NCBI GenBank assembly: GCA_964552045.1
Contig: CAZKFF010000001.1
Span: forward strand, 64,120-128,119
DNA length: 64,000 bases
Source of the DNA: an uncultured Candidatus Saccharibacteria bacterium
Lineage (GTDB): Bacteria; Patescibacteriota; Minisyncoccia; Phycocordibacterales; UBA918
Direction: 5' to 3'
Of the stretch, positions 4,337-57,500 are shown one piece after another (position 1 is the stretch's first letter; each line of letters starts with the position of its first letter). The notes under the pieces are model-generated. The model saw only the letters and a program-made list of their open reading frames with translations. It did not search any database and was not told where the DNA came from. Position numbers and translations under genes: made by a program.

Positions 4337-6613
4337 TTATTTGGCGACAGTGACCGCCTCCTCAAACTTTACCGACAGCAGTTTCGAGACCCCGTCGCCA
4401 CCCATAGTAACGCCGTAGAGTATGCCGGCGCGACTCATGGTCTCGCGGTTGTGCGTAATGAGGATAAGCTGCGACTTCTCCGCAAGCGCCTCGATCATGT
4501 CGCCGTAGCGCCGCGAATTTGCCTCATCAAGTGCCGCATCGGTCTCATCAAGAATGATGAACAGAGGGGGGTTGACCTGGCTCATGGCGAAAATAAGCGC
4601 GATGGAAGTAAGTGCCCGCTCCCCTCCGGAAAGCATATCCAAGCCCCGCACGCGCTTGTTGGGAAGTTTGACGTCAAGCTCGATCCCTTCCTGTACCAGC
4701 TCATCCTCTTCCCCCGCTGCTGGAGCCGTTTCTTCCTCACCTTCTTCAAGTTCATCGTTCTGTTTGCGGATCTTCGGCTTCACACGGAGGAGTTTTGCCT
4801 CACCGCCCCCGAACATCAGCGCGAAGAACCGGTTGAACTCAGCTCCGATCTTTTCAATGCCGGCGACAAACTCGCTATTGAGCGAAGCAGTGAGTTCCGC
4901 GATGAGTTCCTCGAGCTTTGTGATGGAGGCTTCCAGATCGGCTATTTCCCGAACCAGGAATTCATCACGGCCTTTCACTTCCTTGTATTCCTTCTCGACA
5001 TCCTGATCAACGCCGCCAAGCTCTTCAAGGCGTATCTTGAGCTTCTCAAGCTCATGCCGGCGATCCTTCTGCACCTGCCGATCTTCGCTGACTATCTCTT
5101 TGGTACCGACCGGCTTCCCATCCTTCTCTATCTCAAGAGTGAAATATTTTGATGCGCCGCTGCCGATCAGTGCCACCGCCTCCTGCAGTTCCCGTTTGAA
5201 TTCATTGCGGTCACGTTCAAGCGCACCCAATTCTGCATCAATGCGGGAGATGAGATTTTCGCATTCGCGCTGCTCTCCGATGATACGGAACACTTCCCGC
5301 TCGGCATCCCGGCTCTCCGATTGCTCTGCCTCAATGGACCGCCGTATCTCTTCATATGCGGAGGTCAGTTCTGACTCCTCTTTCTCAATATGGACTATGC
5401 GGCTTTCGCATTCCTGTTGTTCCACCTCCAGATCCTGAAGCTCCTTTTCCTCATCCTTGGTGCTCCCGGCAGCAGACCCGGACGCATGCTGCAGCAGTTT
5501 CCGCAACATATGCACCATATCGGCAAACGACCGACGCAGAAAATGGAGGTCTTCACTTGCTGCCGCCTTCTGTGCGGCCACCTCGATCGCATCGAGTACT
5601 TTTTTGAATTCACTGCCCGGAACGGGAGCAACCTCTTCCTGCGCATGTTTCTCTTTCATCTGGGTAATGCGGCGCTTCAGGAAGAGCACCTGTCCCTCCA
5701 CCGTCCCGCTCTTGCGCAACAGTTCCTGGCGCTTCTTGCGCACAGCCGATATCTTTTCTTCAAGGTCCATCAGCGTCTTGCTCTTCTCGTCATTCTCGCT
5801 TGCAGCGAGCACTGACTTTGCTTTGCCCAGTTCCTGGGTAAGCGCGTGGAGCTTCTGCGTCGGCTCATCCTTCTGTGCGGTAAGCCTGTCGTGATGGAAT
5901 GCTATATACGTGTCCTCACGTTTGAGATATTCCGCATACACTGCCGTCAACTCCTGCCGCAGCTGCAAGGCACGCTCTATCTTCTTCAATTGCCGCTCCA
6001 AAAACTGCAGATGTGGCGCGACCTCGCGGCGCAGCGACTGCACCCGCCCAACGTTTTCACGGGTTTTCTCCAGTTTCCTTTCTGCCTCGTTCTTCTTGTA
6101 TTGATATACCTTCAGCCCCAAAGCATCCTCGATCATTTCTCTGCGCTCCTGGTTTGAAGCTGAAAGGATGCGGTCCGCCTCACCCTGGGAAATGATATGG
6201 TGGCCTGTTGAACCAATATTTGCTGCAGCGAGCAGCTCCTGAACGTCTTTCAGGCGGACCTTCGAGCTATTGATTGCATACTCATTGGTACCGTCGCGGT
6301 TGACCGTACGTTCAATGAGGATCTCATCGAAATCCATCTGGAACACTCTTTGTGTGTTGTCGAGGACCACACTGACCTGCGCACGGTTGCCGCGTGAGAC
6401 GCTGTCCGAGCCGTTGAATATGAGGTCCTCACCTCTCTTGCCGCGCATCGATTTTATGGATTGCTCACCCAATACAAAGCGAAACGCTTCAGCGACATTT
6501 GACTTGCCAGAACCATTTGGACCCACGATCGCAGTTATGGGCGCACTGAATTCAAGCTCGCTCTTCTTAGCAAATGATTTGAAACCACTGATTGTGAGGT
6601 GTTTAAGATACAT
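4337..6613 (-). CDS. smc: chromosome segregation protein SMC (short form, 758 aa)
   Basis: N-terminal Walker A FKSF...GPNGSGKSN. Long coiled-coil middle. C-terminal signature LSGGERALTSIALIFA and Walker B LFIILDETDAALD. Confidence 0.85.
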   Translation of the reverse strand: MYLKHLTISGFKSFAKKSELEFSAPITAIVGPNGSGKSNVAEAFRFVLGEQSIKSMRGKRGEDLIFNGSDSVSRGNRAQVSVVLDNTQRVFQMDFDEILIERTVNRDGTNEYAINSSKVRLKDVQELLAAANIGSTGHHIISQGEADRILSASNQERREMIEDALGLKVYQYKKNEAERKLEKTRENVGRVQSLRREVAPHLQFLERQLKKIERALQLRQELTAVYAEYLKREDTYIAFHHDRLTAQKDEPTQKLHALTQELGKAKSVLAASENDEKSKTLMDLEEKISAVRKKRQELLRKSGTVEGQVLFLKRRITQMKEKHAQEEVAPVPGSEFKKVLDAIEVAAQKAAASEDLHFLRRSFADMVHMLRKLLQHASGSAAGSTKDEEKELQDLEVEQQECESRIVHIEKEESELTSAYEEIRRSIEAEQSESRDAEREVFRIIGEQRECENLISRIDAELGALERDRNEFKRELQEAVALIGSGASKYFTLEIEKDGKPVGTKEIVSEDRQVQKDRRHELEKLKIRLEELGGVDQDVEKEYKEVKGRDEFLVREIADLEASITKLEELIAELTASLNSEFVAGIEKIGAEFNRFFALMFGGGEAKLLRVKPKIRKQNDELEEGEEETAPAAGEEDELVQEGIELDVKLPNKRVRGLDMLSGGERALTSIALIFAMSQVNPPLFIILDETDAALDEANSRRYGDMIEALAEKSQLILITHNRETMSRAGILYGVTMGGDGVSKLLSVKFEEAVTVAK

Positions 6614-6633
6614 TGCAGCTGGTCCGCTCCACC

Positions 6634-7497
6634 TTAATTGACAAAGATGATATACGCATCGTCAAGGTCGATCTCATCATTGATCCAATTGTATGCTCCC
6701 TGCGTGTAATAGGAACTCTGGGTGTAGTAAGACGTCTGGGTGTAGTAGGATGTCTGCGCATAATAATTTCCCTGGATGTAGTACGAGGTCTGCGCATAAT
6801 ATGAAGTCTGCGTGTAGTACGAGGTCTGCATATAGTACGAAGACTGCATGTAGTATGAACTCTGTACATAGTACGAACCCTGGGCATAGTACCCGGATTG
6901 TGAGTAGTACCCGCTTTGGCTGTAGTAGCCTGATTGCGAGTAGTACCCACTTTGGCTGTAGTACCCGCTCTGACCATAGTAGCCGCTCTGCCGATAGTAT
7001 CCTGACTGTGAGTAATACCCGCTCTGGCCGTAACCCGCATACGCAACCGGCAGGAACGAATCGTCTTCAAGGTTAAGCTCTTCTTCCCCGCATACATCGG
7101 TGTAGTTCCCGTTCCCTTCAGACTCCATGTTCTGGACAATGATGACATCCCTGGTTTCGCCATTGCATTCAAAATCAGAGAAATACCAATATCCGTAGTT
7201 GCTTTTATCTCCGAGTGGGTCTTTGTTTATTTCAGGCAAGAACGGAGCAAGTTCGTCATCGATCGCCTCCCCTACGCCTATCTCTACCCCGTCGCTGAAT
7301 TCAGGGTATTCACCGTTCGCTTCTTTGTAGAGGCGAACCCCGAGCTTGAGCTGTTCAAGGTCATTCACCCGCGCTGTATCACGCGCTTCTTTCCGTGCGT
7401 TGCTGAAAACAGTGAAGGCAAGCACTGCCAGAGTAATGATGATGCCGACAACAGTCATCACTTCAACAAGTGTAAAACCTGTTCTTCTCATTAGCAC
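6634..7497 (-). CDS. type IV pilin-like protein with C-terminal Tyr-rich pentapeptide repeat
   Basis: N-terminal class III (prepilin) signal RRTGFTLVEVMTVVGIIITLAVLAF. Conserved pilin-like core shared with the neighbouring gene. About 23 tandem copies of S-G/S/T-YY-x-Q. Confidence 0.75.
   Translation of the reverse strand: MLMRRTGFTLVEVMTVVGIIITLAVLAFTVFSNARKEARDTARVNDLEQLKLGVRLYKEANGEYPEFSDGVEIGVGEAIDDELAPFLPEINKDPLGDKSNYGYWYFSDFECNGETRDVIIVQNMESEGNGNYTDVCGEEELNLEDDSFLPVAYAGYGQSGYYSQSGYYRQSGYYGQSGYYSQSGYYSQSGYYSQSGYYSQSGYYAQGSYYVQSSYYMQSSYYMQTSYYTQTSYYAQTSYYIQGNYYAQTSYYTQTSYYTQSSYYTQGAYNWINDEIDLDDAYIIFVN
6690..7045 (-). repeat. 15-nt periodic coding repeat encoding (S-x-Y-Y-x-Q)n
   Basis: Visible 15-bp periodicity gtagta...ctg..., with synonymous and near-synonymous variation between units. 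Confidence 0.8.
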
Positions 7498-7543
7498 AAT
7501 AATATCATCCGTAGAGCACTAAAAAAGAGCGACCGGGGGAATA

Positions 7544-8032
7544 TCAGTCCTTCAGTACGATAATGTACGACCCTGACCCTGCCACGGTCGCATCGGGACT
7601 TGCATCTGTACAAACAGTTGCAAAGTTCGCGTTCTTTGAAAGTTCCATGTTGCGGGCAAAAATGACATGCTGGCCGGATTCAGAACAGGTGAAATCAGAA
7701 TCGTACCAGTAGCTGTATTGGGTGCCCTCCGCTGCCCGCTTCGGATCACTGTAGATATTGCCGTTGAAAAGCCGGATATCGTCATCGAGATCACCGCCCA
7801 TCCCGATTTCAACCCCATTATCGAACGATGGGTAATCCCTGTATTTCTCCTTATAGAGCGTGAGGGCGAACTGGATATTGGTCAGATCAGAGACACGTTT
7901 TTCTTCGCGCGTTTTCTGCCGTGCCTGGGACATCGAGGCAAGCACGATGGTGAGTATGATCATGATGAGAGCGATCACAACCGCAAGTTCAACAAGTGTG
8001 AACCCGTCTTTTGTCTTCGCAATCTGTCGCAT
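7544..8032 (-). CDS. type IV pilin-like / pseudopilin protein
   Basis: 162 aa. N-terminal KDGFTLVELAVVIALIMIILTIV (G|FTLVE prepilin cleavage/methylation motif). Core paralogous to the 6634..7497 gene (YP-FxxGVEIG-G...YWY-SDF-C). Confidence 0.75.
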   Translation of the reverse strand: MRQIAKTKDGFTLVELAVVIALIMIILTIVLASMSQARQKTREEKRVSDLTNIQFALTLYKEKYRDYPSFDNGVEIGMGGDLDDDIRLFNGNIYSDPKRAAEGTQYSYWYDSDFTCSESGQHVIFARNMELSKNANFATVCTDASPDATVAGSGSYIIVLKD

Positions 8033-8098
8033 GCCTTAATCCTATCATGCACTTACTGTGCAAAACTGAGATAGCCACCAGGCCCAAGGCTGCATAAT

Positions 8099-8821
8099 TT
8101 ACCAGCCTTTCTGCTCGATCGCTTTCAGCGCTGCTTCCTGTTCAGCCTCCTGTTTCGCCCGTCCCTTCCCTTCGCCTACCTTTTCTTTCCCGAGAAAAAC
8201 GCCAACAGTGAATACGCGGTCATGGTCTGGTCCTTCCTGGCTGAGCGTAGCATAGGTCGGCGTCAGGTTTGTGTGTTCCTGCGCCAGCTCCTGAAACCTG
8301 CTTTTTGGATCTTGCCACAGGCGCTTCTCCACTATCTCATCAGTTTTGCTGAACAACTGATCAGCGATGAATTTCTGGGCGATGCCGTACCCCTGATCCA
8401 CGTACAAAGCTCCAATGAATGCTTCGAATGCATTTGCCAGAATATACTGCCGTGCTCTTCCAACATCCTTTGATTCGCCTTTGGACATCAGGAGATAATC
8501 ATTGACGCCGAGCTTCGTCGAGGCATTGGAAAGCGAGACCGTATTGACAAGCGCCGACCTGATGGCGGTAAGCTCGCCTTCCGGCTTATCTGGATACTTG
8601 CGGAACAGGAAATCCGTCACCACAAGCTCCAACACTGCATCCCCAAGGAATTCGAGCCGTTCGTTGTGGTCTTGCTTAGCATCGCGGTGCTCATTGAGAT
8701 ACGAACGGTGTGTTATGGCGGTCAACAGGTGCATTTTGTCATTGAACACAAAACCGAGCACGCGTTCAAGTGCGAGCAGGTCAGCTTCAATGTTCCGTTC
8801 ATCGCTTTCTTTTTGAGCCAT
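8099..8821 (-). CDS. rnc: ribonuclease III
   Basis: RNase III signature ERLEFLGDAVLELVVTDFLF. C-terminal dsRBD with a KAKQEAEQEAALKAIE-like tail. Confidence 0.9.
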   Translation of the reverse strand: MAQKESDERNIEADLLALERVLGFVFNDKMHLLTAITHRSYLNEHRDAKQDHNERLEFLGDAVLELVVTDFLFRKYPDKPEGELTAIRSALVNTVSLSNASTKLGVNDYLLMSKGESKDVGRARQYILANAFEAFIGALYVDQGYGIAQKFIADQLFSKTDEIVEKRLWQDPKSRFQELAQEHTNLTPTYATLSQEGPDHDRVFTVGVFLGKEKVGEGKGRAKQEAEQEAALKAIEQKGW

Positions 8822-8862
8822 AGTTCTGTGTAGCTCAACGCTACCACGTTTTAAAAAATGCG

Positions 8863-9768
8863 CTACTTCCTGCTATTGTTTGCAACAAGCATCGTCACCG
8901 CCTTGGTCACAATGGGCAGAATGTCCTCATAGAAATTGAGATCGAGTATCTCGGCAACCTTGAACCATTTCGCGTCATCAAGGCCACCTTTATTCTCCAA
9001 AGTAAGCTCAGTATATCCGCTTCGGGCGAGGAAATACGTGACCTGCTTCCGCACTTTGCCGAGTTCTGGGTGCGATGCCACGTATTCATTCTTGCCAAGT
9101 TCACCTTCGAGGATAACATCGACGCCGATCTCTTCTTTGATCTCACGCATGGCGCCGGCCTCGACTGTTTCACCCTCCTCGATCTTCCCCTTTGAGAGAG
9201 TCCAGTGTCCGAAGATATCGTGAACCAGAGCCAGATAGATGTCACCATCAGACTCCGAATACACCACAGCACCCGACAGACGTTGTATCGGCATCTTTTC
9301 AAAAGGAATATCCTTCCGCGGCCGTTTGCCCGTCTCATCCTTCCCCGGCTCGCCTATCTCCTTATACACTGCACCGAGCACGCCGTTGACGAACCGGCTG
9401 CTGTTCTCGCCGCCGAACTGTTTTGCAAGTTCTATTGCTTCGTTGATGGCGACCTTCGCAGGCACCTCTTTCCGGTCAGCAAAAAGAAGCTCGTAGAGTC
9501 CCAAGCGCAATATATTTCTATCTACCGGTGAAATACGGTCAATGGGCCACTCGGGAGCAGCCTTTTCGATCACCTGGTCGAGTTCCGGCTGCTTGCCAAG
9601 TACGCCGTCAAGAAGCTTCTCAATAAACGGTGCGTCGGTCTTGTTCGGGGCAAACTCGGATATGTTGCGTTCCAAAACGTCTGCTACGCCCTTCTTTTCA
9701 ATATCATTTAAATCCCACTCAAAAAGTGTCTGAAGAACGATAGACCTGCTTAAATGTCGATTTGCCAT
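8863..9768 (-). CDS. nusB: NusB antitermination factor fused to a C-terminal NUDIX hydrolase domain
   Basis: N-terminal about 140 aa are NusB-like (ends ...RFVNGVLGAVYKE). The C-terminal half carries the Nudix box GKIEEGETVEAGAMREIKEEIGV. Confidence 0.8.
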   Translation of the reverse strand: MANRHLSRSIVLQTLFEWDLNDIEKKGVADVLERNISEFAPNKTDAPFIEKLLDGVLGKQPELDQVIEKAAPEWPIDRISPVDRNILRLGLYELLFADRKEVPAKVAINEAIELAKQFGGENSSRFVNGVLGAVYKEIGEPGKDETGKRPRKDIPFEKMPIQRLSGAVVYSESDGDIYLALVHDIFGHWTLSKGKIEEGETVEAGAMREIKEEIGVDVILEGELGKNEYVASHPELGKVRKQVTYFLARSGYTELTLENKGGLDDAKWFKVAEILDLNFYEDILPIVTKAVTMLVANNSRK

Positions 9769-14404: not shown

Positions 14405-14431
14405 AGTACCAGGGAAACACGGAGGCCAAGA

Positions 14432-14626
14432 ATGGTTTCGAAGGGTGTAATAAGACAGATTGAGGAACTGGTCGCCCATCAATTGCCGGAACTTGAGAAG
14501 CTTGAGGCTCTCTATGCACAGGTTTTCTGTATAGAGATCATTGCTGAAGGAAAGACACCTTCTAAGGAAGGGCTTCCTTCACTTGGAGAACAACGGAGCT
14601 CCGTGAAAAGCTCAACGAACTCTTGA
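14432..14626 (+). CDS. small hypothetical protein (64 aa)
   Basis: GGAGG RBS 7 nt upstream of the ATG. Sits between dnaE and a terminator. No known domain. Confidence 0.35.
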   Translation: MVSKGVIRQIEELVAHQLPELEKLEALYAQVFCIEIIAEGKTPSKEGLPSLGEQRSSVKSSTNS

Positions 14627-14717
14627 GTACCCCATACGTCATAGAAACGCTTTTGGTTCTGTTGCCGACACTCATTGATGTCAAAAAGCGCGGATCGGGA
14701 GGTTCTTGAAATCTCAC

Positions 14718-14745
14718 CCCGGCACCTACGGTGCCGGGTTTTTTG
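14718..14745 (+). terminator. intrinsic terminator of the dnaE transcription unit
   Basis: cccggcacc-tac-ggtgccggg perfect 9-bp stem, followed by tttttt. Confidence 0.65.
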
Positions 14746-14763
14746 AATAGTTGACCTATGGTA

Positions 14764-15522
14764 TTAAAATTTCAGAGAATTCAATATCTTTTCAGTCACC
14801 GAGACATCTCCGCTTATGTGCCACATAGTCAAGCCACTACCGTTAACAAACAGATGATATTTTAAAGTATCACCCACACATTCCTCACATTCCTTCTCAG
14901 TTATATCATTTCCCTTTGCATCAAACAGAGCCGGGCTAGTGATTTGCTTTAGCAAATTTACTCCATTTTCAAGAGTGATATAAACACTATATTTGGGAAT
15001 TTCTTTAAAAGTAATAATGCCATATTTAGAACTCTCCCCCGCTAGAGATGTTCTTTCTTTTTCAAAATCTTTTAACGAAGTTATTTCTGAATAGCCGACC
15101 CCACATGGCGTGTTTGGCGTACAGATTTTCACAGCATATTTTTTTGAATTGCTGCTATCTCGAAGAATAACATCACCTTCTTTGCTGACTTCCAATTCTT
15201 TCGGATACATGAAGCTAAAACCATACTGTTCATCAGTATATGTTTCTGTAAGAGGACCGTATGAGATAGGCTGCTTTTTGGTTGCAGACTCTACCGGTGC
15301 AGCTGCTTCTTGTGTCACCTCAAGTTCGCTGCATGGTGTTGTTGTTGCAGTCAGGTCGCAGTCAGGTTGCATTTGATTTTCTGGAACAGTTGCATCTGGA
15401 GTAGATATAAATGGCAGCATACGGACAAGATCATAGCCAAATGCAGATGAAACTGAGAAAGCAACCGCAACAATTACAACAATCGCGATGAGTAATGCGA
15501 TTATTTTTTTGTTTGATTTCAT
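14764..15522 (-). CDS. membrane-anchored secreted hypothetical protein (AT-rich islet)
   Basis: Start MKSNKKIIALLIAIVVIVAVAF (signal anchor). Cys-containing extracellular region. Local GC is much lower than the flanks. Confidence 0.55.
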   Translation of the reverse strand: MKSNKKIIALLIAIVVIVAVAFSVSSAFGYDLVRMLPFISTPDATVPENQMQPDCDLTATTTPCSELEVTQEAAAPVESATKKQPISYGPLTETYTDEQYGFSFMYPKELEVSKEGDVILRDSSNSKKYAVKICTPNTPCGVGYSEITSLKDFEKERTSLAGESSKYGIITFKEIPKYSVYITLENGVNLLKQITSPALFDAKGNDITEKECEECVGDTLKYHLFVNGSGLTMWHISGDVSVTEKILNSLKF

Positions 15523-15578
15523 ATAGGTGCATTTTATCATGCATCTATTGAATTTAATTGACAAAACTGGAGAAGCTC

Positions 15579-16814
15579 ATGCATAAAAAGATCCAAGTGT
15601 TACGATTAATGTGTATGAACCACTCTAAAATTTTTCTTCTCCTAAGTCTTTTAGTTACATTTATTTCTCAATCCGCACATGCAGAAAATGTCTACTACCA
15701 ACCCACTCCTTACGCGACGACCACAACGAACGGTGTGCACCTATATGACGGCTGGGTACCTAGCGTTTTTTATGGAAAAAAATTTATCCAAGATGAGAAG
15801 CTGAGAACCGGTGGCTGGGGCGATACATACCGTACATATCTTAACTTTGATCTTGAAGGTCTCCCAACAAATGTTTCAACAACAACCCTCTGGCTTACGC
15901 CATATTTTGATGGTGCTGGTGCAACTACCACCTCACTGGATATATATAGAGTAACAAGTAGCTGGTCCCCCACTATGACCTGGACTACACAACCTTCATT
16001 AAGCTATGTCGGGCAACTCGGAAGACCTGAATACAATATCCCTTGGGGCATAAACATATCGAGTTTGTATACTAACTGGAAGAATGGTACTTATTCGAAT
16101 TATGGGTTAATGCTAAACCCAGATTTAACCAACAATAAATTTAGTGTTTTTCGTTCTTCGAGATATACAACTGATGAAGAAGATCGGCCCATGTTGCAAT
16201 TTGATTTCACTCCACCGGTTACTATTCCCGATTTTAAGATTCCTCTACCTGGAGATCTCTCATGGTTAGTTACTAACGAGACTGGCGGCTATCGTTGCCT
16301 AAACGATGGACAAACTATATCTCACACCAACAATAATTATTTCTCCATAGACTTTGACGATCTAAACAAAGATGGGAGCGGCAACCCACAGACGACTTTC
16401 ACTATAGGAAGCACAAGTACCACTTCAGTTCCAATTCTTGCTGCTGCAGATGGGAAGGTAGTTGAACGAGGTACGAATGAGAATGTGCCCAATGGTTATT
16501 ATTTGGTGTTGGATCATGACACTGACTATGATGCCGATACTGGCTTTACAACAAGGTATTTACATCTGGCATATCCTCCAGAAGTCGCTATAAACGATAC
16601 TGTTTTACAAGGTGATTTGCTTGGTTATTTAGGTAACACTGGATCAAGTACAGGTTCACATCTACACTTTGGACTTCGATATGAAAACGATGGTACAAGT
16701 TCCTCAAATGTTCAATATGCAACTATTGAAAGCTGGCTCACTAAAGGAATTCAGACCGAATGTACTAGCGTAATACTAAATCGTTATTATCTATCCTCAA
16801 ATCAGGCTTACTAG
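15579..16814 (+). CDS. secreted peptidase M23 (LytM-type) with N-terminal DNRLRE-like domain
   Basis: Signal peptide ...MNHSKIFLLLSLLVTFISQSAHA. N-domain motifs YRTYLNFDLEGLP and VTSSWSPTMTWTTQP resemble the DNRLRE domain. C-terminal M23 active-site block LGYLGNTGSSTGSHLHFGLRY. GGAG RBS precedes the ATG at 15579. Confidence 0.75.
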   Translation: MHKKIQVLRLMCMNHSKIFLLLSLLVTFISQSAHAENVYYQPTPYATTTTNGVHLYDGWVPSVFYGKKFIQDEKLRTGGWGDTYRTYLNFDLEGLPTNVSTTTLWLTPYFDGAGATTTSLDIYRVTSSWSPTMTWTTQPSLSYVGQLGRPEYNIPWGINISSLYTNWKNGTYSNYGLMLNPDLTNNKFSVFRSSRYTTDEEDRPMLQFDFTPPVTIPDFKIPLPGDLSWLVTNETGGYRCLNDGQTISHTNNNYFSIDFDDLNKDGSGNPQTTFTIGSTSTTSVPILAAADGKVVERGTNENVPNGYYLVLDHDTDYDADTGFTTRYLHLAYPPEVAINDTVLQGDLLGYLGNTGSSTGSHLHFGLRYENDGTSSSNVQYATIESWLTKGIQTECTSVILNRYYLSSNQAY

Positions 16815-16879
16815 ACGATTCGATAGTGAAGTTGACTTAATAGCTGACCTTACGCTAGGATGTAGTGACCCAGAGATTG

Positions 16880-17050
16880 TGGTGGCTACCAACCGCCAGT
16901 GCGCATGCACGTGTTATCTGATCTGGAACAGCAAAGTGCCATGCAGTATACCTGCATGGAAGCCCGGTGGAACCGCGGTACTCACGAAAGTGAAGATCGT
17001 CCGAGCGAACACACGAACTATCGTGTAGTCGCTTGGGCGATTTATTTTTA
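16880..17050 (+). promoter_or_regulatory. candidate thrS leader with T-box-like motif
   Basis: GGTGGAACCGCGG at 16967-16979 is one mismatch from the T-box core GGUGGUACCGCGG. An upstream stem contains an ACC (Thr) triplet in gctACCAacc. A weak hairpin tcgcttgggcga plus TTTATTTTT sits at 17029-17049. Weak, unconfirmed. Confidence 0.25.
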
Positions 17051-17068
17051 TTACTTAATGCAATACAC

Positions 17069-24072: not shown

Positions 24073-24103
24073 AAAGCCGCAGGAGTGATCCGCGGCTTTT
24101 TTA
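24073..24103. terminator. bidirectional terminator hairpin
   Basis: aaaaagccgc-aggagtgatc-cgcggctttttt between convergent genes. Confidence 0.5.
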
Positions 24104-25492
24104 GCGCCCAAACCACAAAACCTTTTTGTCGGGATCCTGCTCTTCGGGGAAAAGCGCATTCCAGGTTGCCCGGTCCACTGTCCCTGGTATGACCTCGGAC
24201 TCAAGCATTTCCTTGCTGAAGACGCGCTGCTGAAAATCATATACCGCTTGTCGCGTGCCGGTGCCGTACAGTCCGTCAATTGCCACGCTTTCGTCCCCGT
24301 ACTCGTAGAGTGCCATCTGCACCTTTATGGTAAGCGCTCTTTTTTGCGGAGCCTCAGCCTCATCGAGTTCCATTGAGATGATCGTCTTGACCGTATCGAG
24401 CATAGCGCCGACCACTTCCGGCCCATGAATAAGGACGATGGTGTACTTTTCCCCGCTTGGCGACATCCGGTCTATGGCACCCCATTCGATGCCCGAAGGC
24501 ATGCGCACTCCAGCAGCACAGTCGCGGTCAAGGAACACCGGCGAACCGGAAATGCCCTCAAGGTCGTAGGCATTTTGCTTCTGGTCACCGTTGGAATCGT
24601 TCATCTTTGTGAGGAACGCATACGAAGACAAGAATGCTTCCTCGTATTCTCTGCTCGCGCGTGCTCCGAACAGCGCCTCTTTTTCATCTGTGGTTAGCAA
24701 CCCTTCTGTCACCTTGAATACGACGCCGGAGAGGATGTCGGTCCCGTCACTTGCCCTGCCTCTCCGTTCATGGATCGAGGGGATATGCACGAGATTGCCG
24801 CTGATATCCTCTGACGCTTTCCTCCTATCCCACTGCAGCTGTACCTTGTCTATCTCCTCTTTTCCTTCTTCGTTGGTGACCAACTCCGATACCGCGCACC
24901 CGCCGATATCCTCCCTTCCCCCCAGAAGTTCACAGCGGAACGAATGCTCCATGACGTGCTTATTGGCGATGAGTGCGTCATTAACAAAAAATCCGTTACT
25001 GTATCCCGCAAGATACATGTCTTCATTATTGCGCTGATGCGCAAAGCGGATATGGGGAATGCGATCCTTTCCCTCATGCCTGATCTGTACCGACGGCCAT
25101 GATCCGCCCTCGCGGAAAAAACCCTCACGGTCAACCTCTGAACCCTCCAGAACAGAGCGGTCGGTGACCGGTATTCCTTCCTCTCCTTCAAGGATGCTCC
25201 AGATCTCCTCTTCAGTTATATCGATCCGGGCGAGTTCCATCTTCAATTGCTTCAGTCGGGCTTCGTATGCACGGATCGACCCCACCAAATCCTCGGCGTT
25301 TTCTGGCGAGAACGGCGACGCCTCAGCACCGTGCACGCCTGAGACACCCAATGCGCTTGCTGCAGCCAAAGCACCAGCTCCCTTTAAGAACTGGCGTCTT
25401 TGAAGACCCTGTGCATTCAGCTCATGAGCGTTATCCGCTGTCTTTGAGGTGCGGGGCGTATCTTTTTTAAAGAAAAGGCTTTCAAATCCCAT
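24101..25492 (-). CDS. Tat-secreted trypsin-like serine-protease-like protein with C-terminal peptidoglycan-binding domain
   Basis: Twin-arginine signal RRQFLKGAGALAAASALG. GISGSPVF resembles the S1 catalytic-Ser motif GxSGxPV. C-terminal LTIKVQMALYEYGDESVAIDGLYGTGTRQAVYDFQ resembles a PG_binding_1 repeat. Confidence 0.55.
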   Translation of the reverse strand: MGFESLFFKKDTPRTSKTADNAHELNAQGLQRRQFLKGAGALAAASALGVSGVHGAEASPFSPENAEDLVGSIRAYEARLKQLKMELARIDITEEEIWSILEGEEGIPVTDRSVLEGSEVDREGFFREGGSWPSVQIRHEGKDRIPHIRFAHQRNNEDMYLAGYSNGFFVNDALIANKHVMEHSFRCELLGGREDIGGCAVSELVTNEEGKEEIDKVQLQWDRRKASEDISGNLVHIPSIHERRGRASDGTDILSGVVFKVTEGLLTTDEKEALFGARASREYEEAFLSSYAFLTKMNDSNGDQKQNAYDLEGISGSPVFLDRDCAAGVRMPSGIEWGAIDRMSPSGEKYTIVLIHGPEVVGAMLDTVKTIISMELDEAEAPQKRALTIKVQMALYEYGDESVAIDGLYGTGTRQAVYDFQQRVFSKEMLESEVIPGTVDRATWNALFPEEQDPDKKVLWFGR

Positions 25493-33790: not shown

Positions 33791-33805
33791 ACATAAAAGC
33801 CTCAG

Positions 33806-37328: not shown

Positions 37329-38693
37329 CTATCCGGCGTCAAGTGTGCGGATATCTCCTTCGAGCCGTGCCTTTCGTTCCATCACCTGATCCCCGTAAAA
37401 CTGGTTCTCCGACCGTGACGCGCCTCCCCACCCTGCATAGTAGCGCAGCGCCGCAAGCCGATCGCTTGCATAGCTGCCGGTTGCGCCATTGTCCCGCAAG
37501 AGAAGCGCCGCTGCCATAAAGGCATCCTGCTTATTGAACGGATTGGAGGCGGTGGAGCCTCCTGTAAGACTGCGGATGGCATCCTGCGCTTTTGAGTACA
37601 CATATCCCCCGCTGCCATTGCTGACAATACCTCCATAGATCGCCCAAGTAGACGGAATGAACTGCAGCGGACCCATCGCGCCTCCCCAGCCGATACGCGA
37701 GCCGTCTGCACGCATAAGCGGGCAGGAAACGTTCTGTGTGGATGCTTCAAAACCGAGTACATCTGCAATTGCCAGGAAAATAGGTGCATCACGTTCAGGA
37801 TGCATGACCGATTTGCCCTGGCGGATATCTCCCACCTGGCACGAGCCAGTGTTGCTGCCGTAATTCGACTCTTGCTCGACAACCGCGAGAATGAGTGCCG
37901 GACTGACACCCGTTTGAGTCCCCGCGTATTGCGCGAGCGCTACTGCCTCAGGGAATGGGATCGCGCCGCTTCCTCCGAGCAGCTGGAAGAGCTGATTGCG
38001 CAGCTGTGCGGCAGTTTTCTGTTGTGAAGCAAGCAGTTCCTGATATGCCTTTTCTTCTCCTTTGGTCACTTGAAGAATCTGTTCTTTCTGTCCTTCTTTC
38101 GCCTCGATCTGCTTTTTTTCAAGTTCCTGCAACTGCTTCATGCGTGCTTCAGCAGTCTGCTTCTCCTCAAGCGACATCTTCTGCGTCTCCGTATCGGTTT
38201 TTATTTCGGTGAGCGCCTGGAGCGAATCGTTGAGTGAATGCTTCACCGCATGGAAGCTCTCAACATCAGTGAAAAAATCCGAAAAGCTCTGGTTGCTGAG
38301 CAGCACCTCCACCAGTGAGTAATCATCGACTGCTTCGGTCTGGCGTATAAGTTCGGCAAGAGACGTGCGCTGCTTCTCCAGGCGTTCATTGAGAATGCTG
38401 ATCAGCTCTTCCTTGTCGCCGATCTGGTCAGTGAGCGACGATATAGCAAGCGCTCGCGCCTGAATGCCGAGCTGCGCTTTCTCTATCTCGGCATCAAGGA
38501 TACCGAGGTCGCGCTCCAGTGACTGCCGCTCCTGCTTTTTGCCTTCAACAAGCTGCTGCTGCACGATCATCTGCTTCTCCACCTGCTGCAGCTGCGCTTC
38601 GATGCGTGCACGCTTTTCTGCATCCGTCTCCGCCAGAGTCACCTGCGGCAGCAAATAAGCAGCGCACAGAAAAATAGCAACGTATCTTCGCAT
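37329..38693 (-). CDS. secreted coiled-coil protein with C-terminal lytic-transglycosylase (SLT-like) domain
   Basis: Signal peptide [21 protein letters not shown]. About 250 aa of heptad-like Q/E/K/L-rich coiled coil. C-terminal block [15 protein letters not shown] resembles the SLT catalytic-Glu motif. Confidence 0.65.
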
Positions 38694-38765
38694 GATACCT
38701 GTAGTATAGCATCTGCAGACAAGAAAACACCCGCGCATGCGGGTGTTTTCTTGTGGGATGCTCAT

Positions 38766-51599: not shown

Positions 51600-54500
51600 C
51601 TATATTTCGCCGCCGCCGCCGCCACCGCCGCCGCCTGCCTGGGTATACGGCTTTACCTGAATGGCATCGACCTTGACCGTATTCTGATCCGGCTGGTCAA
51701 TGACACGGACGAAGAAGTTGCCGCCTGAGAGGTCACTTGGACTCCAGCTGCGGCCCCAGGTATCGGACGCACCGCCGAGCGTATAGACTGCGTCGCTTCC
51801 CGTGAGCACGGATGTTGCCTTTGTCGCCGTCACACTTTCGTCGCCATTCCAGGAAAGTGCCACCTGAATCGTTCCCGCCCCGGTTGAACCGGACGCTTCA
51901 AGCTTCACTTCGATACCGGTCACCGTATTCCCTGCCGGCACATTGAAGCCGAAGACACTGTACGACTGACGAAGGTCCGCCGATGCAGCCGTTGCGTAGA
52001 CGTCGTCGGAGGTAAGCGCATTGCTGCCGTTTGTCCACTCATTGTAGAGTTCTCCGGTTGCGGTCGGCGCTTTGAAGCCGGGTTCGTTGCCAATCTGCTC
52101 TCCATTATCCTCTTCCCCTACTCCGCCGCCGCCGTTGTTGCCGCCGCCGCCGATGTCACCATCACCTTCTGGTGCATCGTCTCCCACTTCAGCGCTGAAG
52201 AGACTGCCGCCGCCCTTATTGCCGCCGCGGATATGCTGCACTGAGGTCACACCTCCGAGCGGGACAACAACTCCTTCAGTCGTCGCGCCCGTGCCGGTAA
52301 CACCGTTACGATTGAGGTCAATGGTCAGATACTCATTGGTATGTACGCCCGTGACATCTCCCGTAAGGACATAGTCTTTGGTCGTCGTTGCATCCCATGA
52401 TGTTGAGAATGTTATTGTCCCTGATTGTCCCGTGATGGCTAACACGCCAGTGCCGCCGATCTGGTTGTCAGAAGCGTCTGCCGTACCGTTGCTGTTATTG
52501 TCGCGGTAGAGCTTAAAGTCCCCAATATTACTGCTATCGATACGATGGATGCCGGAGAGTGTAAATACAGCTGACGTGATCGTTGCATTCTCTCCAACAG
52601 GTGCAAGATTAAAGGCAAACAATGGTTCGTCGCTCTTGTTCTGGTAGCTGAATGCATTGTCGATCTGACCAGCGGTGTGATCTGCAAGGTTTGCTGCACC
52701 ATAGATAGCCACAGTCTTATCATCATGAACGCCAGTAGCTGCCACAGGATCAAGTGTATAAGCGTTGATATCGTCACCCGTATAACCCATCACATAGAGC
52801 GTGGTACCGTCGTTGTTGAAGAGTGCCGCAGCAGGAGCAGATTCCTGTGCGGCGACCGAGAACGCGATCTCGTCGAAGGTCGCCGTTGAGATGTCGTACG
52901 GAGTGGAGAGCGTATAGGCATTGATGTCTTGTCCTGTTAAGCCCACAACATACAATACAGTACCGGTGTTGTTGAAGAATATATCAGAGGGGGCGTTTTC
53001 TTCTGAAAGGACCGAGAACGCGATCTCGTCGAAGGTCGCCGTTGAGATGTCGTACGGAGTGGAGAGCGTATAGGCATTGATCTCCCCACCAGATGCTTGC
53101 ACAACATACAGGACGGTACCGGTGTTGTTGAATTCCATATCATAGGGGAAGGATCCCTCTGCCGAAACCGAGAACGCGATCTCGTCGAAGGTCGCCGTTG
53201 AGATGTCATACGGAGTGGAGAGCGTATAGGTATTGATGTCGAGACCAGAAGTACCCATCACATAAAGAACGGTGCCGGTGTTATTGAAGAGCATTGAACG
53301 GGGGTTGATTTCCTGTGCGGCGACCGAGAGAGCGATCTCGTCGAAGGTGGCAGTTGAGATGTCATACGGAGTGGAGAGCGTATAGGCATTGATGTCATCA
53401 CCGGTAGAACCCATCACATAGAGCGTGGTACCGTTGTTGTTGAAGAGCATTGCACGAGGAGCGTCTTCTTGTGAAGAGACAGAAAGGGAGATTCCATTGA
53501 AGATGGCAGTTGAGACATCGTATGAACCTGACTCTTGATCAACAACAAACGACAGCGTCGATGTTGGCGCAGCAAGTGCGTTAAATTGTGTAAATGAAAG
53601 CCCCGAAATAGTGAGGGTATCCCCTCCTGAGAAGTCATTCGAGACGGGTACGACGAGTGTGGCACCGCTGTCCTCATACGAAACAGGATTAGAGACTTTG
53701 CCTGAGGCGGTTCCTCCAAAGACTGCAGTGGTATCGGTCGTATCCCACTTCATATTTGTCTTTGTAGTGTCAATGGTAATACGAAGGTCATTCGCTGCCG
53801 TAATCGTCGGGGTCTCGGCGTCGGTTATGGTAATGGCGGCAATAGACGTGGTCGCCTGGCCGTATCCAAAGATCTGGTTCGATGCTGAGGAAATCGTCCC
53901 CGCCCCGCCTCCACCTGCTGGCGCTGTGATGTCCCAGCAGTCGTTATTGCCGCTGTCGGTCGAGCTGGCTGCAGTGATGGTGCTTGCGCTGTCGCATGCG
54001 TTTGAGTCCATCACATCGACATACGTAACGGATATCTGGGTATCTGCATCGAGGCCCCACTGGGTTCCGTCCTGTGTTGAACGGAGTACGATCTCGTCAT
54101 TCTCTGCGCCGTCTATCTGTATAGAGGCGAAGGTTGAGGTCGCATCCGCAGGGAATTCCAGAGTAATACCGGGAGTGATCGCTACCAATTTTGCAGCCTC
54201 TACCGGATCAGTGAAGGTGGTGACCGGAACTCCGCCAGTATTGCCGGGCGAAGTCATCACGAGATCGGTACCAGATTGCGCTACCGCAACAAACGTACCG
54301 TTGCCGTAGGTCACTGACCGCCAAGAACTCGCTGCTCCTTCTTGTCGAGCAGTCCACGTGATTCCGTCAGGCGAGGTCATCACTTGATCAGTGCCACCGA
54401 GAGATACCGCAACAAACAGGCCGTTGCCGTAGGAAACGGAATGCCAGAAGGAAGCTTCTGTCGCCGAATGCGAGGTCCACGTGATGCCGTCCTCTGAGCT

Positions 54501-57500
54501 CATGACTCGGTTGGTGCCGGCTTGCGCGACGGCCACGAACGTGCCATTGCCATGCACCACGGAAATCCATGAACTTGCTTCAGCAGCACGTGCCGTCCAG
54601 GTGATGCCGTCAGGAGAGGTCATGACGCGGTTGGTGCCATCTTGAGAAACAGCGACAAATAAGCCATCGCCGTAGGTTACAGAAGTCCATGTGTTCGCCT
54701 CCGTTGCGGATCGTGCCGTCCACGTAATGCCGTCAGGAGAGGTCATGACGCGGTTGGTGCCGTCGGAAGAAACAGCGACAAACAGGTCGTCGCCGTAGGT
54801 GACTGATCGCCACTGGTTCGCTTCTGCGGCTGTGCGTACAGTCCAGGTAATGCCGTCGGGCGAGGTCATGACGCGGTTGGTGCCATCTTGAGAAACAGCA
54901 ACAAATAAGCCATCGCCGTAGGTGACTGATCGCCACTGGTTCGCTGCTGCGGCTGTGCGTGCAGTCCAGGTAATGCCGTCGGGCGAGGTCATGACGCGGT
55001 TGGTGCCCGTGAGTGCTACCGCGACGAACTGGCCGTTGCCGTAGGTGACTGAGTGCCACTGGTTCGCTTCTGCGGCTGTGCGTACTGTCCATGTTTGTCC
55101 GCCTTCGACCACTGGCGTATCCACTGAAGCGACCTCAAGCGTACCGAAGCTGGAGCTGCCGGTCAGGTTCCCACTGAAGGTTTGTGTGCCTCCATGTATG
55201 GTCGTCGTACCGTTCCCCCAGTCTATGGTCCCATTGTTCTCATAATCACCCGCAATCGAGAACTGCGACGGTGCTGTTACATACGTGTCCTCTGTAATGC
55301 TCAAGTCACTGGTCGAAGCATTGTTGGCAAACACCACTTCGCCGAGGAGCTCCCCGTCTGCAGAAGTCATGACGCAGTTTGTGGTACAGGTCGCTCCTGC
55401 GCTTGTCTGCTGTGCAATCGCGACAAATTTATTTTCTCCGTAAACAATATCCCACCATTTATTGACATTTATCGATGCGCGAGGTGTCCAATTTGCTCCA
55501 TTGTCACTAGAGGTCATGATCTGGTTTGTGCCGTCAGGTGAGACCGCAACAAAGAGGCCGCCGCCGTACGTGACTGACTGCCAGCTGTTCGCTTCATATC
55601 CGCTCGATACAATACTCCATGTGATGCCATCCTCTGAGGTCATGACATTATCATAGGCAACCGCGACAAACGTGCCACCGCCGTATCCCAAGCCGTACCA
55701 TGTACTACCCGGCACATTGCGCGATGTCCACGTGATGCCGTCGGGCGAGGTCATGACCAGATCGGTCCCCGTCGATGCGATCGCCACGTAGAGGCCTTCT
55801 CCGTAGACCACTCTCTCCCATTTGTTTGCCGCCGCAGCAGTACGTGCAGTCCACGTGATGCCGTCGGGCGAGGTCATGACGCAGCTGGTGCTGCAGGTGG
55901 CCGTACCATCGATATTGTTGTGGGCAATCGCAACAAACTGCCCTCCTCCATACGTTACCGAGTACCATTCGTTCTGCGCAGCTGCTGACCTGTTGGTCCA
56001 CGTGACTCCGTCAGGTGAGGTCATCACCTGATTGGTGCCGTTGCCAGCAACCGCAACAAACAGGCCTTCGCCATAGGTCAGGCTATTCCACGAGTTCGCC
56101 TGCGATGCTGAACGAGAGGTCCACGTGATGCCGTCAGGCGAGGTCATGACGCGGTTGGTGCCCGTGTATGCAAGCGCAACAAATGTGCCGTTGCCGTAGG
56201 TTATCGCAGACCAGGTACTGTTCTCCGATTGATTTTGTGCTGTCCAGTTCGCCCCGTCCGGTACGAACAGCTGCGGGGCATCAATGGTAATATCGTTGAA
56301 TGCCGAGCTTCCCGTCATGTTGCCCGAGAGAGTTGTCGTACCCGTGTAGGTTGTGGTTTCTGAGTAATCAAGACTGTACGGGAAAATATCCGAGGCAGAC
56401 TCTCCGTGGACATACATCTTCGAACCGTCGGGTTTGAACTCAAAACCATCAGGGAAGTCCTCCTGACTCGTAACCGAGATTGAAGTTCCGTCATATACTG
56501 CCGTGGTGACATCCCACGGGGTTGAAAGCGTGTATGGGGAGATATAGTCGTTGAGATAACCGCTGACGAACATCTTCGTTCCATCGTCGTTGAAGGCCAC
56601 ATCCTGGATATTCGTCTGCTGTGTATTGACCGAGAAGGACTTGCTGTCGTAGCTCGCACTTGAGATATCCCACGGGGTTGAAAGCGTATACGAATAGACC
56701 CGATTGTTTGCATCACCGCCGATGTACATGCGCGTGCCATCCTGCTTGAAGGTCATACCGAATGGTGTTGCATCCTGCGTCGTTACTGAAAAACTGACAC
56801 TGTCGTAGCTTGCTGTGGTGACATCCCATGCAGAAGACAGTGTGTACTGGAAGACGCGGTCATTGCCGGAACCGAGCGCAAACATCTTCGTACCGTCGCT
56901 TGAGAACGAGACTTTTTCGACAAAGCTATCCTGGGATGCAGTTGAGAATTCATTGACGTAACTCGCTGTGGTGACATCCCATGCAGAAGACAGCGAGTAT
57001 TCGGCAACGGCATCGCTGTTGTAGCCGTTGATGAAGAATTTCGTGCCGTCAGGCTTGAATGCGAGGCTTGTCACCTGCGACTCCTGCGAGGTCACCGAGT
57101 ACGCCACACCATCATAGGTTGCGGTGGTGATGTCCCAACTGGCAATCGCTGTTGTTGACGCTGTGGTGGTCCCGACAATATAGGTGAGGCCGCTTCCGCT
57201 GTCGAAGGTGCCGTTATTGGTGTAGTCGCCGGTTATGGTGAGCACCTCCGGCGCTTCCACAGTCGCGCCCGAAGCGATCGTAAAGTCGCTCGTCGAGGCA
57301 TTATCAGAGAACGTCTTAGTGCCATTTCCGGAGAAAGAGACTGCATTGAATGCGCTCGATCCGGTCATGCCGCCCGAAAACGCTTGTATGCCTGAACCGT
57401 CGAAATTGACGATACCGTTATGATGCGCGAAGACGCCGGTGTTCGCATAGTCGCCAGAGATCGTCAATTCAGCCGGAGCGATAAGCGTCGTCTGTCCGCC

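Follow-up and report, generated by a model that had tools for sequence, protein, structure and literature searches.

Horizontal acquisition is strongly supported for a two-gene islet that was recognised in a 64-kb stretch of DNA (64,000 nt of contig CAZKFF010000001.1, the window in the following) from an uncultured bacterium of the Patescibacteria or candidate phyla radiation (CPR). The islet, located between dnaE and thrS, consists of a gene for an M23 metallopeptidase with a DNRLRE/CBM96 domain and a divergently oriented gene whose product is referred to here as the partner. Comparisons with related loci revealed that enzyme and partner form a conserved, co-inherited and co-diverging cassette, in which the partner evolves faster. 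The reading we lean towards is that the cassette specifies a horizontally mobile lysin together with a cognate binding protein, serving immunity or control, while the target cell is not established.

The islet is the strongest compositional outlier of the 64 kb. In windows of 400 nt, GC content is 0.365-0.43 across positions ~14600-16900 as opposed to 0.52-0.58 on either side. Among all windows of 2 kb, 14751-16750 has the lowest GC content (0.396 against a background of 0.527 +/- 0.018, z = -7.5), and its tetranucleotide profile, normalised for GC, correlates with that of the whole window at 0.32 compared to 0.73 +/- 0.10 (z = -3.9). The latter value is the second-lowest, 0.005 above that of the overlapping window 15001-17000 (0.314), which likewise spans the islet. 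Two divergent open reading frames (ORFs), 14764-15564 on the minus and 15558-16814 on the plus strand, occupy the dip. Their GC content at third codon positions (GC3) is 0.31 and 0.34, respectively, while 0.45-0.75 is found in all of the 43 other long ORFs. The anomaly therefore sits in codon usage and exceeds what would be a by-product of an Asn/Thr/Ser-rich protein. An earlier note on this DNA, which was based on the letters of the sequence, had claimed a sharp GC drop against the flanks, exactly coextensive with two divergent genes, and had proposed windowed GC and tetranucleotide scores as a check. By both measures the islet is distinguishable from the background, and the match of the dip to the two genes was borne out, with its edges refined to ~14747, directly past a terminator hairpin, and to 16815-16851, short of the thrS leader.

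To judge the origin of the islet, the corresponding site was inspected in 80 loci obtained by a threonyl-tRNA synthetase (ThrRS) scan of species-representative genomes, which showed 61-81% ThrRS identity and did not include the source genome. All 80 belong to Patescibacteria of the Paceibacteria, Kaiserbacteria or Parcubacteria type. Among these, 63 have dnaE directly upstream of thrS, the gap having a median of 412 nt and a range of 34 nt to 4.8 kb, and the closer relatives keep the wider backbone rnhB-dnaE-thrS-orf241-orf440. A homolog of either islet gene was detected in none of the 63 loci with dnaE-thrS adjacency and in none of the 80 within +/-10 kb of thrS. Since the relatives' site lacks both genes, the islet represents an insertion. 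The proposal of horizontal acquisition in the earlier note is thus upheld, orthologs being absent from the syntenic site (63/63 and 80/80 relatives) and the tetranucleotide signature being different. AT-richness by itself, however, is a weaker argument for foreign origin than had been assumed there, because family members in low-GC hosts are GC-richer than their host.

The left edge of the insertion is situated somewhere within the spacer 14405-14763, for which no blastn or tblastn match was obtained across the loci of the 80 relatives. GC content of this spacer is intermediate (0.46-0.48), and 3' of dnaE it contains a strong intrinsic-terminator hairpin (14718-14738) followed by a T-run. On the other side, 16852-17057 aligns to the thrS leaders of the relatives and blastn homology begins at ~16852, so that the insertion ends between 16815 and 16851. 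A 64-aa ORF between dnaE and the terminator (14432-14626, plus strand) has a counterpart in none of the 80 relatives and may be inserted DNA or lineage-specific. Across Paceibacteria, the junction of dnaE and thrS harbours variable cargo, with ORFs that are unrelated between loci; five are present in L064 and one of 385 aa each in L048 and L051. This other cargo in the relatives' gap is mostly host-like in GC (L004-L083).

For the enzyme, three start codons are conceivable: the ATG at 15579 (411 aa), which is preceded by GGAG 6 nt upstream, 15618, or 15558, giving the longest ORF of 418 aa. This ORF matches Peptidase_M23 (PF01551) with 61.1 bits at residues 289-377 (cut-off 28.7), DNRLRE_dom (NF033679) with 72.3 bits (cut-off 34) and CBM96 (PF24517) with 35.2 bits (cut-off 26). 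An AlphaFold (AF2) model was calculated from a family alignment of 59 sequences (pLDDT, the per-residue confidence, 93.4; pTM, the predicted TM-score, 0.87). Searches with Foldseek assigned the N-domain to carbohydrate-binding modules (CBMs), namely the chondroitin-sulfate CBM 8wab with a TM-score of 0.74-0.77 and the alginate CBM96 7vbo with 0.68. ShyA, Csd2, DipM, LytU, lysostaphin and LytM were matched by the C-domain with probability 1.00, and target TM-scores reach 0.7 for isolated M23 catalytic domains. By profile and by fold, the enzyme belongs to M23 and carries a DNRLRE/CBM96 domain. The best sequence match in the PDB is the bacteriolysin zoocin A (E = 1.6e-7). Thus, what had been noted at first reading, a DNRLRE-like N-domain joined to an M23 block, agrees with profiles, model and structure matches; the strings quoted for the two, VTSSWSPTMTWTTQP and GNTGSSTGSHLHFGLRY, are both found in the 418-aa ORF, and the HMM searches suggested at the time with PF01551 and NF033679 pass the curated cut-offs. 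The description of the gene pair as encoding a membrane-anchored and a signal-peptide protein also stands, as each protein opens with a hydrophobic N-terminal helix.

The catalytic histidines H336 and H368, the latter being part of the HxH motif H368-L-H370, are conserved in 57-59 of the 59 family members, and H336 and HxH align with zoocin A, Csd1 and DipM. H256 and D265 are invariant in all 59 sequences, and conservation extends to H320. H256, D265 and H370 are putative zinc ligands; for the first two a ligand role can only be presumed, since their H-x8-D arrangement departs from the canonical H-x3-D. Cys247 and Cys402 form a conserved pair, suggesting a disulfide. Peptidoglycan is the putative substrate. 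Secretion via Sec, with cleavage after SQSAHA, is predicted: the family consensus starts with ~20 hydrophobic residues and A-x-A, followed by TVYYQPTPYP, and the model contains a helix at residues 16-29 with low pLDDT. In L106 (contig Ga0207707_10000002, 1.14 Mb), the M23 member is the C-terminal part of an ORF of ~1440 aa at 4824-9146 (family HMM score 393), which suggests that, in one lineage, it was fused to a long region on its N-terminal side.

The partner starts with a transmembrane or signal helix (residues 3-27), continues with a disordered linker of ~55 residues and ends in an alpha/beta ectodomain (~85-252). Four cysteines are invariant across its family, consistent with an extracytoplasmic location. 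The ectodomain adopts the PsbP/Mog1 fold, with Tsi3, a protein that confers immunity to a secreted muramidase, ranking second among the structural matches; Tli4, DcrB and SciW were matched with lower scores. The likeness is at the level of fold only, with 5-16% identity. In the modelled structure, this fold match suggests a binding role. PsbP profiles remained below cut-off (PF18933, 18.2 bits with a cut-off of 27; PF01789, 15.3 bits with a cut-off of 23.5), and no significant Pfam or NCBIfam family, Fem included, was obtained for the partner. The partner family is rare, as an exhaustive profile search of 1.84 billion representatives returned only 26 matches at E <= 1e-10. A separate data set yielded, by independent assembly, a protein identical to the partner (P0084).

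Between the two genes, promoter-like hexamers are found at 15513-15540 on the plus and at 15564-15536 on the minus strand. The intergenic region is partly conserved in the closest homologous locus, L084, in the form of the blocks TTTCATATA and ATTTTATCATG. A perfect inverted repeat of 13 nt, TCATATAGGTGCA / TGCACCTATATGA, is present at 15519-15531 and 15736-15748, its arms being 204 nt apart, one over the partner start codon and the other within the M23 coding sequence. A rough count puts the number of perfect 13-mers of this kind to be expected in 2.9 kb at only ~0.06; the repeat could be an operator pair or an RNA structure.

A word-based search with the 252-aa partner detected two relatives only. 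When the unannotated neighbours of M23 homologs on long contigs were compared, they turned out to be homologous to the partner (BLASTP E values of 2e-32 to 5e-5). Of ~26 loci in which the flanks were adequate, 18 have the partner or a remote homolog next to the M23 gene. In 10 loci a homologous partner adjoins the enzyme gene in varying orientation: divergent and upstream in the window, in L084 and probably in the P0004 contig, co-directional and upstream in L003, and convergent and downstream in L001, L002, L085, L087, L094, L095 and L100. Loci first seeming to be devoid of a partner have a gene of 180-280 aa immediately downstream on the same strand. In eight of these, its product is remotely homologous to the partner (hhalign probability 97.3%, E = 2.7e-11, 149 columns), while in four further loci the neighbour shares only a 24-residue N-terminal motif with it. 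The view that many members of the M23 family lack a partner had to be revised on these grounds. Six of the 10 partner clusters lie on contigs equal in length to those carrying the M23 gene, the other four on contigs of less than 2.2 kb. Over nine pairs, identities of the enzyme correlate with those of its partner (Mantel r = 0.80, p = 1e-4). In 35 of 36 comparisons the partner has diverged more, mean identities being 0.37 for the partner and 0.55 for the enzyme. In the literature searched no description of a cassette combining an M23 enzyme with a PsbP-fold partner was found, but coverage was incomplete and one may exist. The cassette, the immunity-type fold of the partner and the relatives on conjugative elements described below all go beyond the account in the earlier note.

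Related cassettes occupy a variety of genomic sites. The closest homolog (L084, 74% identity) adjoins DUF2200 and rplB and not dnaE-thrS; a homolog with 56% identity lies between a sigma factor gene and recA, and the L003 pair follows an mraZ-rsmH-PBP-murE division cluster (PBP, penicillin-binding protein). A second pair of filled and empty sites is provided by L117, which is collinear over ~8 genes with the Paceibacteria locus L080 and contains the pair inserted between two genes adjacent in L080. The M23 family is rare as well, with ~70 clusters among 5.8 billion proteins. Phage endolysin origin was rejected, as IMG/VR and INPHARED contain no full-length relative and PHROGs matches cover the M23 domain only, the partner having none. 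In PLSDB only partial M23 matches with less than 30% identity were obtained, and a plasmid origin was dismissed. An anti-phage defence system was also discarded, since PADLOC matches neither protein.

Regression of M23 GC3 on host GC3 over 22 non-redundant loci yielded a slope of 0.39 +/- 0.12 (p = 7e-5 for the difference from 1). The line intersects y = x at ~0.47, the window being the most extreme case at -0.26. Relative to its host, the M23 gene is richer in AT where host GC is high and richer in GC where host GC is low. A slope below 1 is expected of a gene pool moving between hosts faster than it ameliorates, and the regression argues against a single low-GC donor as well as against an intrinsic AT bias. 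That the cassette is always ~0.2 below host GC3 held in the first seven loci and was rejected at 22, where low-GC hosts were reversed.

In seven loci the M23 gene is found amid conjugation-type genes: L001 (on the same contig as L093), L002, L085, L088, L094, L095 and L099. The partner is clear in L001, L002, L085, L094 and L095, weak in L088 (23 bits) and reduced to the short motif in L099. Conjugation-type genes in these loci specify TrwB/VirD4-like ATPases, a coupling protein with DUF8128 and TraG-D_C, a Replic_Relax relaxase and a large serine recombinase. The order of genes in L001, L085 and L094 is M23, partner, a gene of ~230 aa and coupling protein; an unrelated 147-aa gene replaces the third in L002, neither the ~230-aa nor the recombinase marker is present in L095, and L088 and L099 have the coupling protein on the opposite side. 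These sets further share a DUF87/TrwB ATPase, a helix-turn-helix regulator, and Ser/Thr kinases with TPR or FHA domains. GC content of the hosts is ~60% in these loci, and several elements lie at contig ends. No flanking genes common to named genomes were detected around them. In a neighbour-joining tree (no support values), the conjugative-element clade is adjacent to the clade of the window. Within the elements, cassette GC3 is 0.51-0.62 compared to 0.73-0.86 in backbone genes, and cassette divergence is uncorrelated with that of backbone ATPase, coupling protein and recombinase (Spearman -0.11 to 0.14); between L085 and L099, for example, the ATPase shows 83% identity and the M23 protein 47%. 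By lower GC3 and uncorrelated divergence the cassette behaves as exchangeable cargo of conjugative-element backbones, which is suggestive given that the sample is small and paralogs may be confused.

Several known systems resemble the islet in part. Zoocin A with Zif and lysostaphin with Lif or Epr likewise combine a secreted M23 zinc endopeptidase and a separate wall-targeting domain with a gene next door, which in their case confers self-protection. In the islet enzyme the domain order is reversed, the targeting module being N-terminal and a DNRLRE/CBM96 beta-sandwich in place of SH3b or TRD. Its first metal motif is H-x8-D and its hosts are CPR bacteria, whereas M23 bacteriolysins are from Firmicutes. 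Their neighbouring gene specifies a cytoplasmic FemABX-type wall-modifying enzyme (PMC7476776), that of the islet a membrane-tethered extracytoplasmic protein with PsbP fold. A secreted M23 enzyme with a targeting domain is thus predicted here, and an adjacent FemABX-like immunity gene is absent. By analogy, the enzyme may work like zoocin A or lysostaphin and would yet stand outside their type of system, because the Fem-type immunity gene is replaced by one for an unrelated extracytoplasmic protein. Regarding the N-domain, the founding CBM96, TM6-N4 of alginate lyase Dp0100, matches in sequence family and fold, and DNRLRE domains are ~30% identical to it (PMC9971899). Characterised CBM96 domains are located on polysaccharide lyases and bind alginate (PMC9971899), while the copy in the islet is fused to a peptidase with wall glycan as the presumed ligand. 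Effector-immunity pairs that belong to type VI secretion systems (T6SS), such as Tse3-Tsi3 of Pseudomonas aeruginosa, are alike in logic and in the fold of the partner, although the islet has no T6SS. VirB1-type hydrolases (CwlT, PrgK, TraG of pIP501) share with the seven related loci the position of a hydrolase amid genes for coupling protein, ATPase and recombinase. The islet enzyme differs from them in that it lacks its own membrane anchor as well as any domain of the lytic transglycosylase, CHAP or NlpC/P60 type. Moreover, VirB1-type hydrolases are encoded in clusters for type IV secretion systems (T4SS); such genes are found near the family in the seven related loci only and not in the 64-kb window, and the cassette does not co-diverge with the element backbones.

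In the reading we lean towards, a self-contained cassette of two genes was acquired horizontally and entered a Paceibacteria (CPR) chromosome at a site flanked by dnaE and the leader of thrS. The enzyme would be exported via Sec, its DNRLRE/CBM96 domain most likely docking on cell-wall glycan, and its M23 zinc endopeptidase domain would cut peptide cross-links of peptidoglycan. The partner would be held at the outer face of the membrane by its N-terminal helix and the linker, and its ectodomain would most likely bind the enzyme, neutralising it or confining it near the producer's own wall. Once released, the enzyme would act on other cells, host or competitor. The effector lysing the host cell wall that was suggested in the earlier note is covered by this reading. 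Physical binding of enzyme and partner, a protective role of the latter and the identity of the target cell are what we infer from these arrangements. A more far-reaching version, which is put forward tentatively and appears doubtful as yet, is that the partner founds a new family of membrane-tethered inhibitors for secreted M23 lysins, and that the cassette moves freely, being exchanged by CPR/Patescibacteria partly on conjugative elements and used to breach the walls of hosts or rivals.

A number of observations weigh against this reading. The model of the partner is of moderate quality (mean pLDDT 64, 55-90 in the globular part), and PsbP/Mog1 is a generic binding scaffold, also found in chaperones, lipoproteins and photosystem subunits, so that the match to Tsi3 indicates neither homology nor function. 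Known M23 bacteriolysins use Fem-type, wall-modifying immunity and no binding protein (PMC7476776). In the enzyme, the first metal motif (H256/D265) is devoid of the canonical spacing, and L086 has no detectable partner and an M23 gene that is host-like in GC. The seven relatives beside conjugation genes fit a wall-opening role equally well, and the tree behind the clade placement is a neighbour-joining tree without support values. Concerning mobility, no integrase or transposase and no convincing flanking direct repeats (above chance) were found in the 64-kb window, and its only tRNA gene, at 33805, is 17 kb away from the islet. Integration at a tRNA or att site was rejected for these reasons. 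Of the features typical of genomic islands, atypical composition and absence from the syntenic site in relatives apply to the islet; integrase, tRNA gene and direct repeats do not.

It is also conceivable, but rather unlikely, that the enzyme is a wall-opening hydrolase of a T4SS or conjugation apparatus, the partner tethering the soluble enzyme and the copy in the window being a remnant or a part acting in trans. The loci with conjugation-type genes, five of the seven with a clear partner, and the position of their clade beside that of the window would fit, and a published survey reports that hydrolases of the VirB1 type in Patescibacteria may contain M23 domains and are associated with virB4 mainly in Paceibacteria (PMC12102498). 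The T4SS of Patescibacteria is reported there to be related to the conjugation machinery of monoderms (PMC12102498). Monoderm T4SS hydrolases are usually membrane-anchored, and the partner would supply the anchor in this case. On the other hand, the 64-kb window contains no T4SS, relaxase or recombinase gene, most other family members have no such genes within +/-8-10 kb, and a cassette with GC3 ~0.2-0.3 below the backbone and a divergence not tracking it looks like cargo and not like a co-evolving core part.

Less probable still is that the enzyme serves as the cell's own autolysin in wall remodelling or in cell separation, the latter being an alternative named in the earlier note, with the partner as regulator, comparable to LytM factors of the EnvC or NlpD type and their controllers. 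The housekeeping remodellers ShyA, DipM, Csd1/2 and MepM are indeed among the structural and NCBIfam matches, and the pair of L003 follows a division cluster. Scores for NCBIfam equivalogs are far under the cut-offs, however, as for DipM with 38 compared to 900, and a gene missing at the locus in all 80 relatives, a family this rare, unrelated sites even among close homologs and foreign codon usage fit poorly with such a role, as does the patchy, mobile distribution. Finally, the islet might be a chimera that arose in the assembly of a metagenome-derived genome, or a functionless remnant in decay, considering that the assembly is from an uncultured organism and that integrase, att repeats and tRNA were not found. 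Host sequence is present on both sides within one contig, however, the dnaE terminator and the thrS leader are intact, the identical partner of P0084 was assembled independently, and the architecture of the pair recurs in many independent assemblies. Both ORFs are intact and contain all conserved residues. On the whole, this explanation is extremely unlikely.

The features of the islet and its flanks are listed in Table 1.

Table 1. Features of the islet and the adjoining DNA (positions in the window)
Feature	Position	Strand	Remarks
dnaE	11171-14404		gene left of the islet
Spacer downstream of dnaE	14405..14763	+	holds 64-aa ORF and terminator hairpin; without counterpart in relatives
Partner gene	14764..15522	-	252 aa; alternative start 15540 gives 258 aa (NCBI call)
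Divergent promoter region	15523..15578	between both genes	promoter-like hexamers on both strands
Gene for DNRLRE/CBM96 + M23 metallopeptidase, predicted to be secreted	15579..16814	+	P0001 100% identical, 411 aa in public data
Sec-type signal peptide (predicted)	15579..15683	+	ends SQSAHA, predicted mature start ENVYYQPTPY
DNRLRE/CBM96 beta-sandwich, putative glycan-binding targeting module	15759..16199	+	ORF residues 68-214
M23 (LytM-type) zinc endopeptidase domain with C-terminal extension	16230..16811	+	PF01551
thrS T-box-type leader	16852..17057	+	host backbone, outside the cassette; marks right edge of the insertion
thrS	~17072-18817		gene right of the islet

The thrS leader matches the T-box model of Rfam with 24.4 bits (E = 0.01), under the gathering score of 93. 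Its T-box core GGTGGAACCGCG at 16966-16977 is found upstream of thrS in 36 of the 80 relatives, a 19-bp terminator at ~16998-17043 is followed by a T-run, and compensatory changes occur in 25 of 35 consensus pairs. An invariant ACC (Thr codon, 16888-16890) is placed in the 7-nt terminal hairpin loop CUACCAA. The leader is of a conserved but atypical T-box type, with ACC residing in a terminal loop instead of an internal specifier loop within a long Stem I. Elsewhere in the window, 24101-25492 and 37329-38765 (both on the minus strand) specify a PG_binding_1 protein with a twin-arginine (TAT) signal and an SLT_2 lytic transglycosylase, respectively. Their GC3 is host-like, so that wall enzymes native to this genome exist in addition to the acquired one. 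A giant ORF of 3696 aa (51600-62690, minus strand) with beta-propeller-type matches to Lactonase, EPTP and DUF6242 ends a run of probable surface-protein genes at 44.7-51.5 kb, which match fn3, WxLIP_PGBD and PD40. At 8863-9768 on the minus strand, a single ORF of 301 aa joins NusB to a NUDIX hydrolase domain.

CPR/Patescibacteria account for a large part of bacterial diversity, and all those cultivated so far are found attached to other bacteria. By what means they open or remodel walls, their own or those of the host, is largely obscure, and the cassette, with an enzyme predicted to be secreted and a putative binder, is a compact and testable candidate. The locus is also a clean case of gene insertion into a reduced CPR genome without a recognisable integrase. 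If the partner is a direct inhibitor, it would represent a new mechanism of self-protection for M23 lysins and could be of use for controlling M23 enzybiotics. Should the more far-reaching version hold true, the cassette would be a Sec-dependent counterpart, in ultra-small epibionts, of the effector-immunity pairs of T6SS and type VII secretion systems (T7SS).

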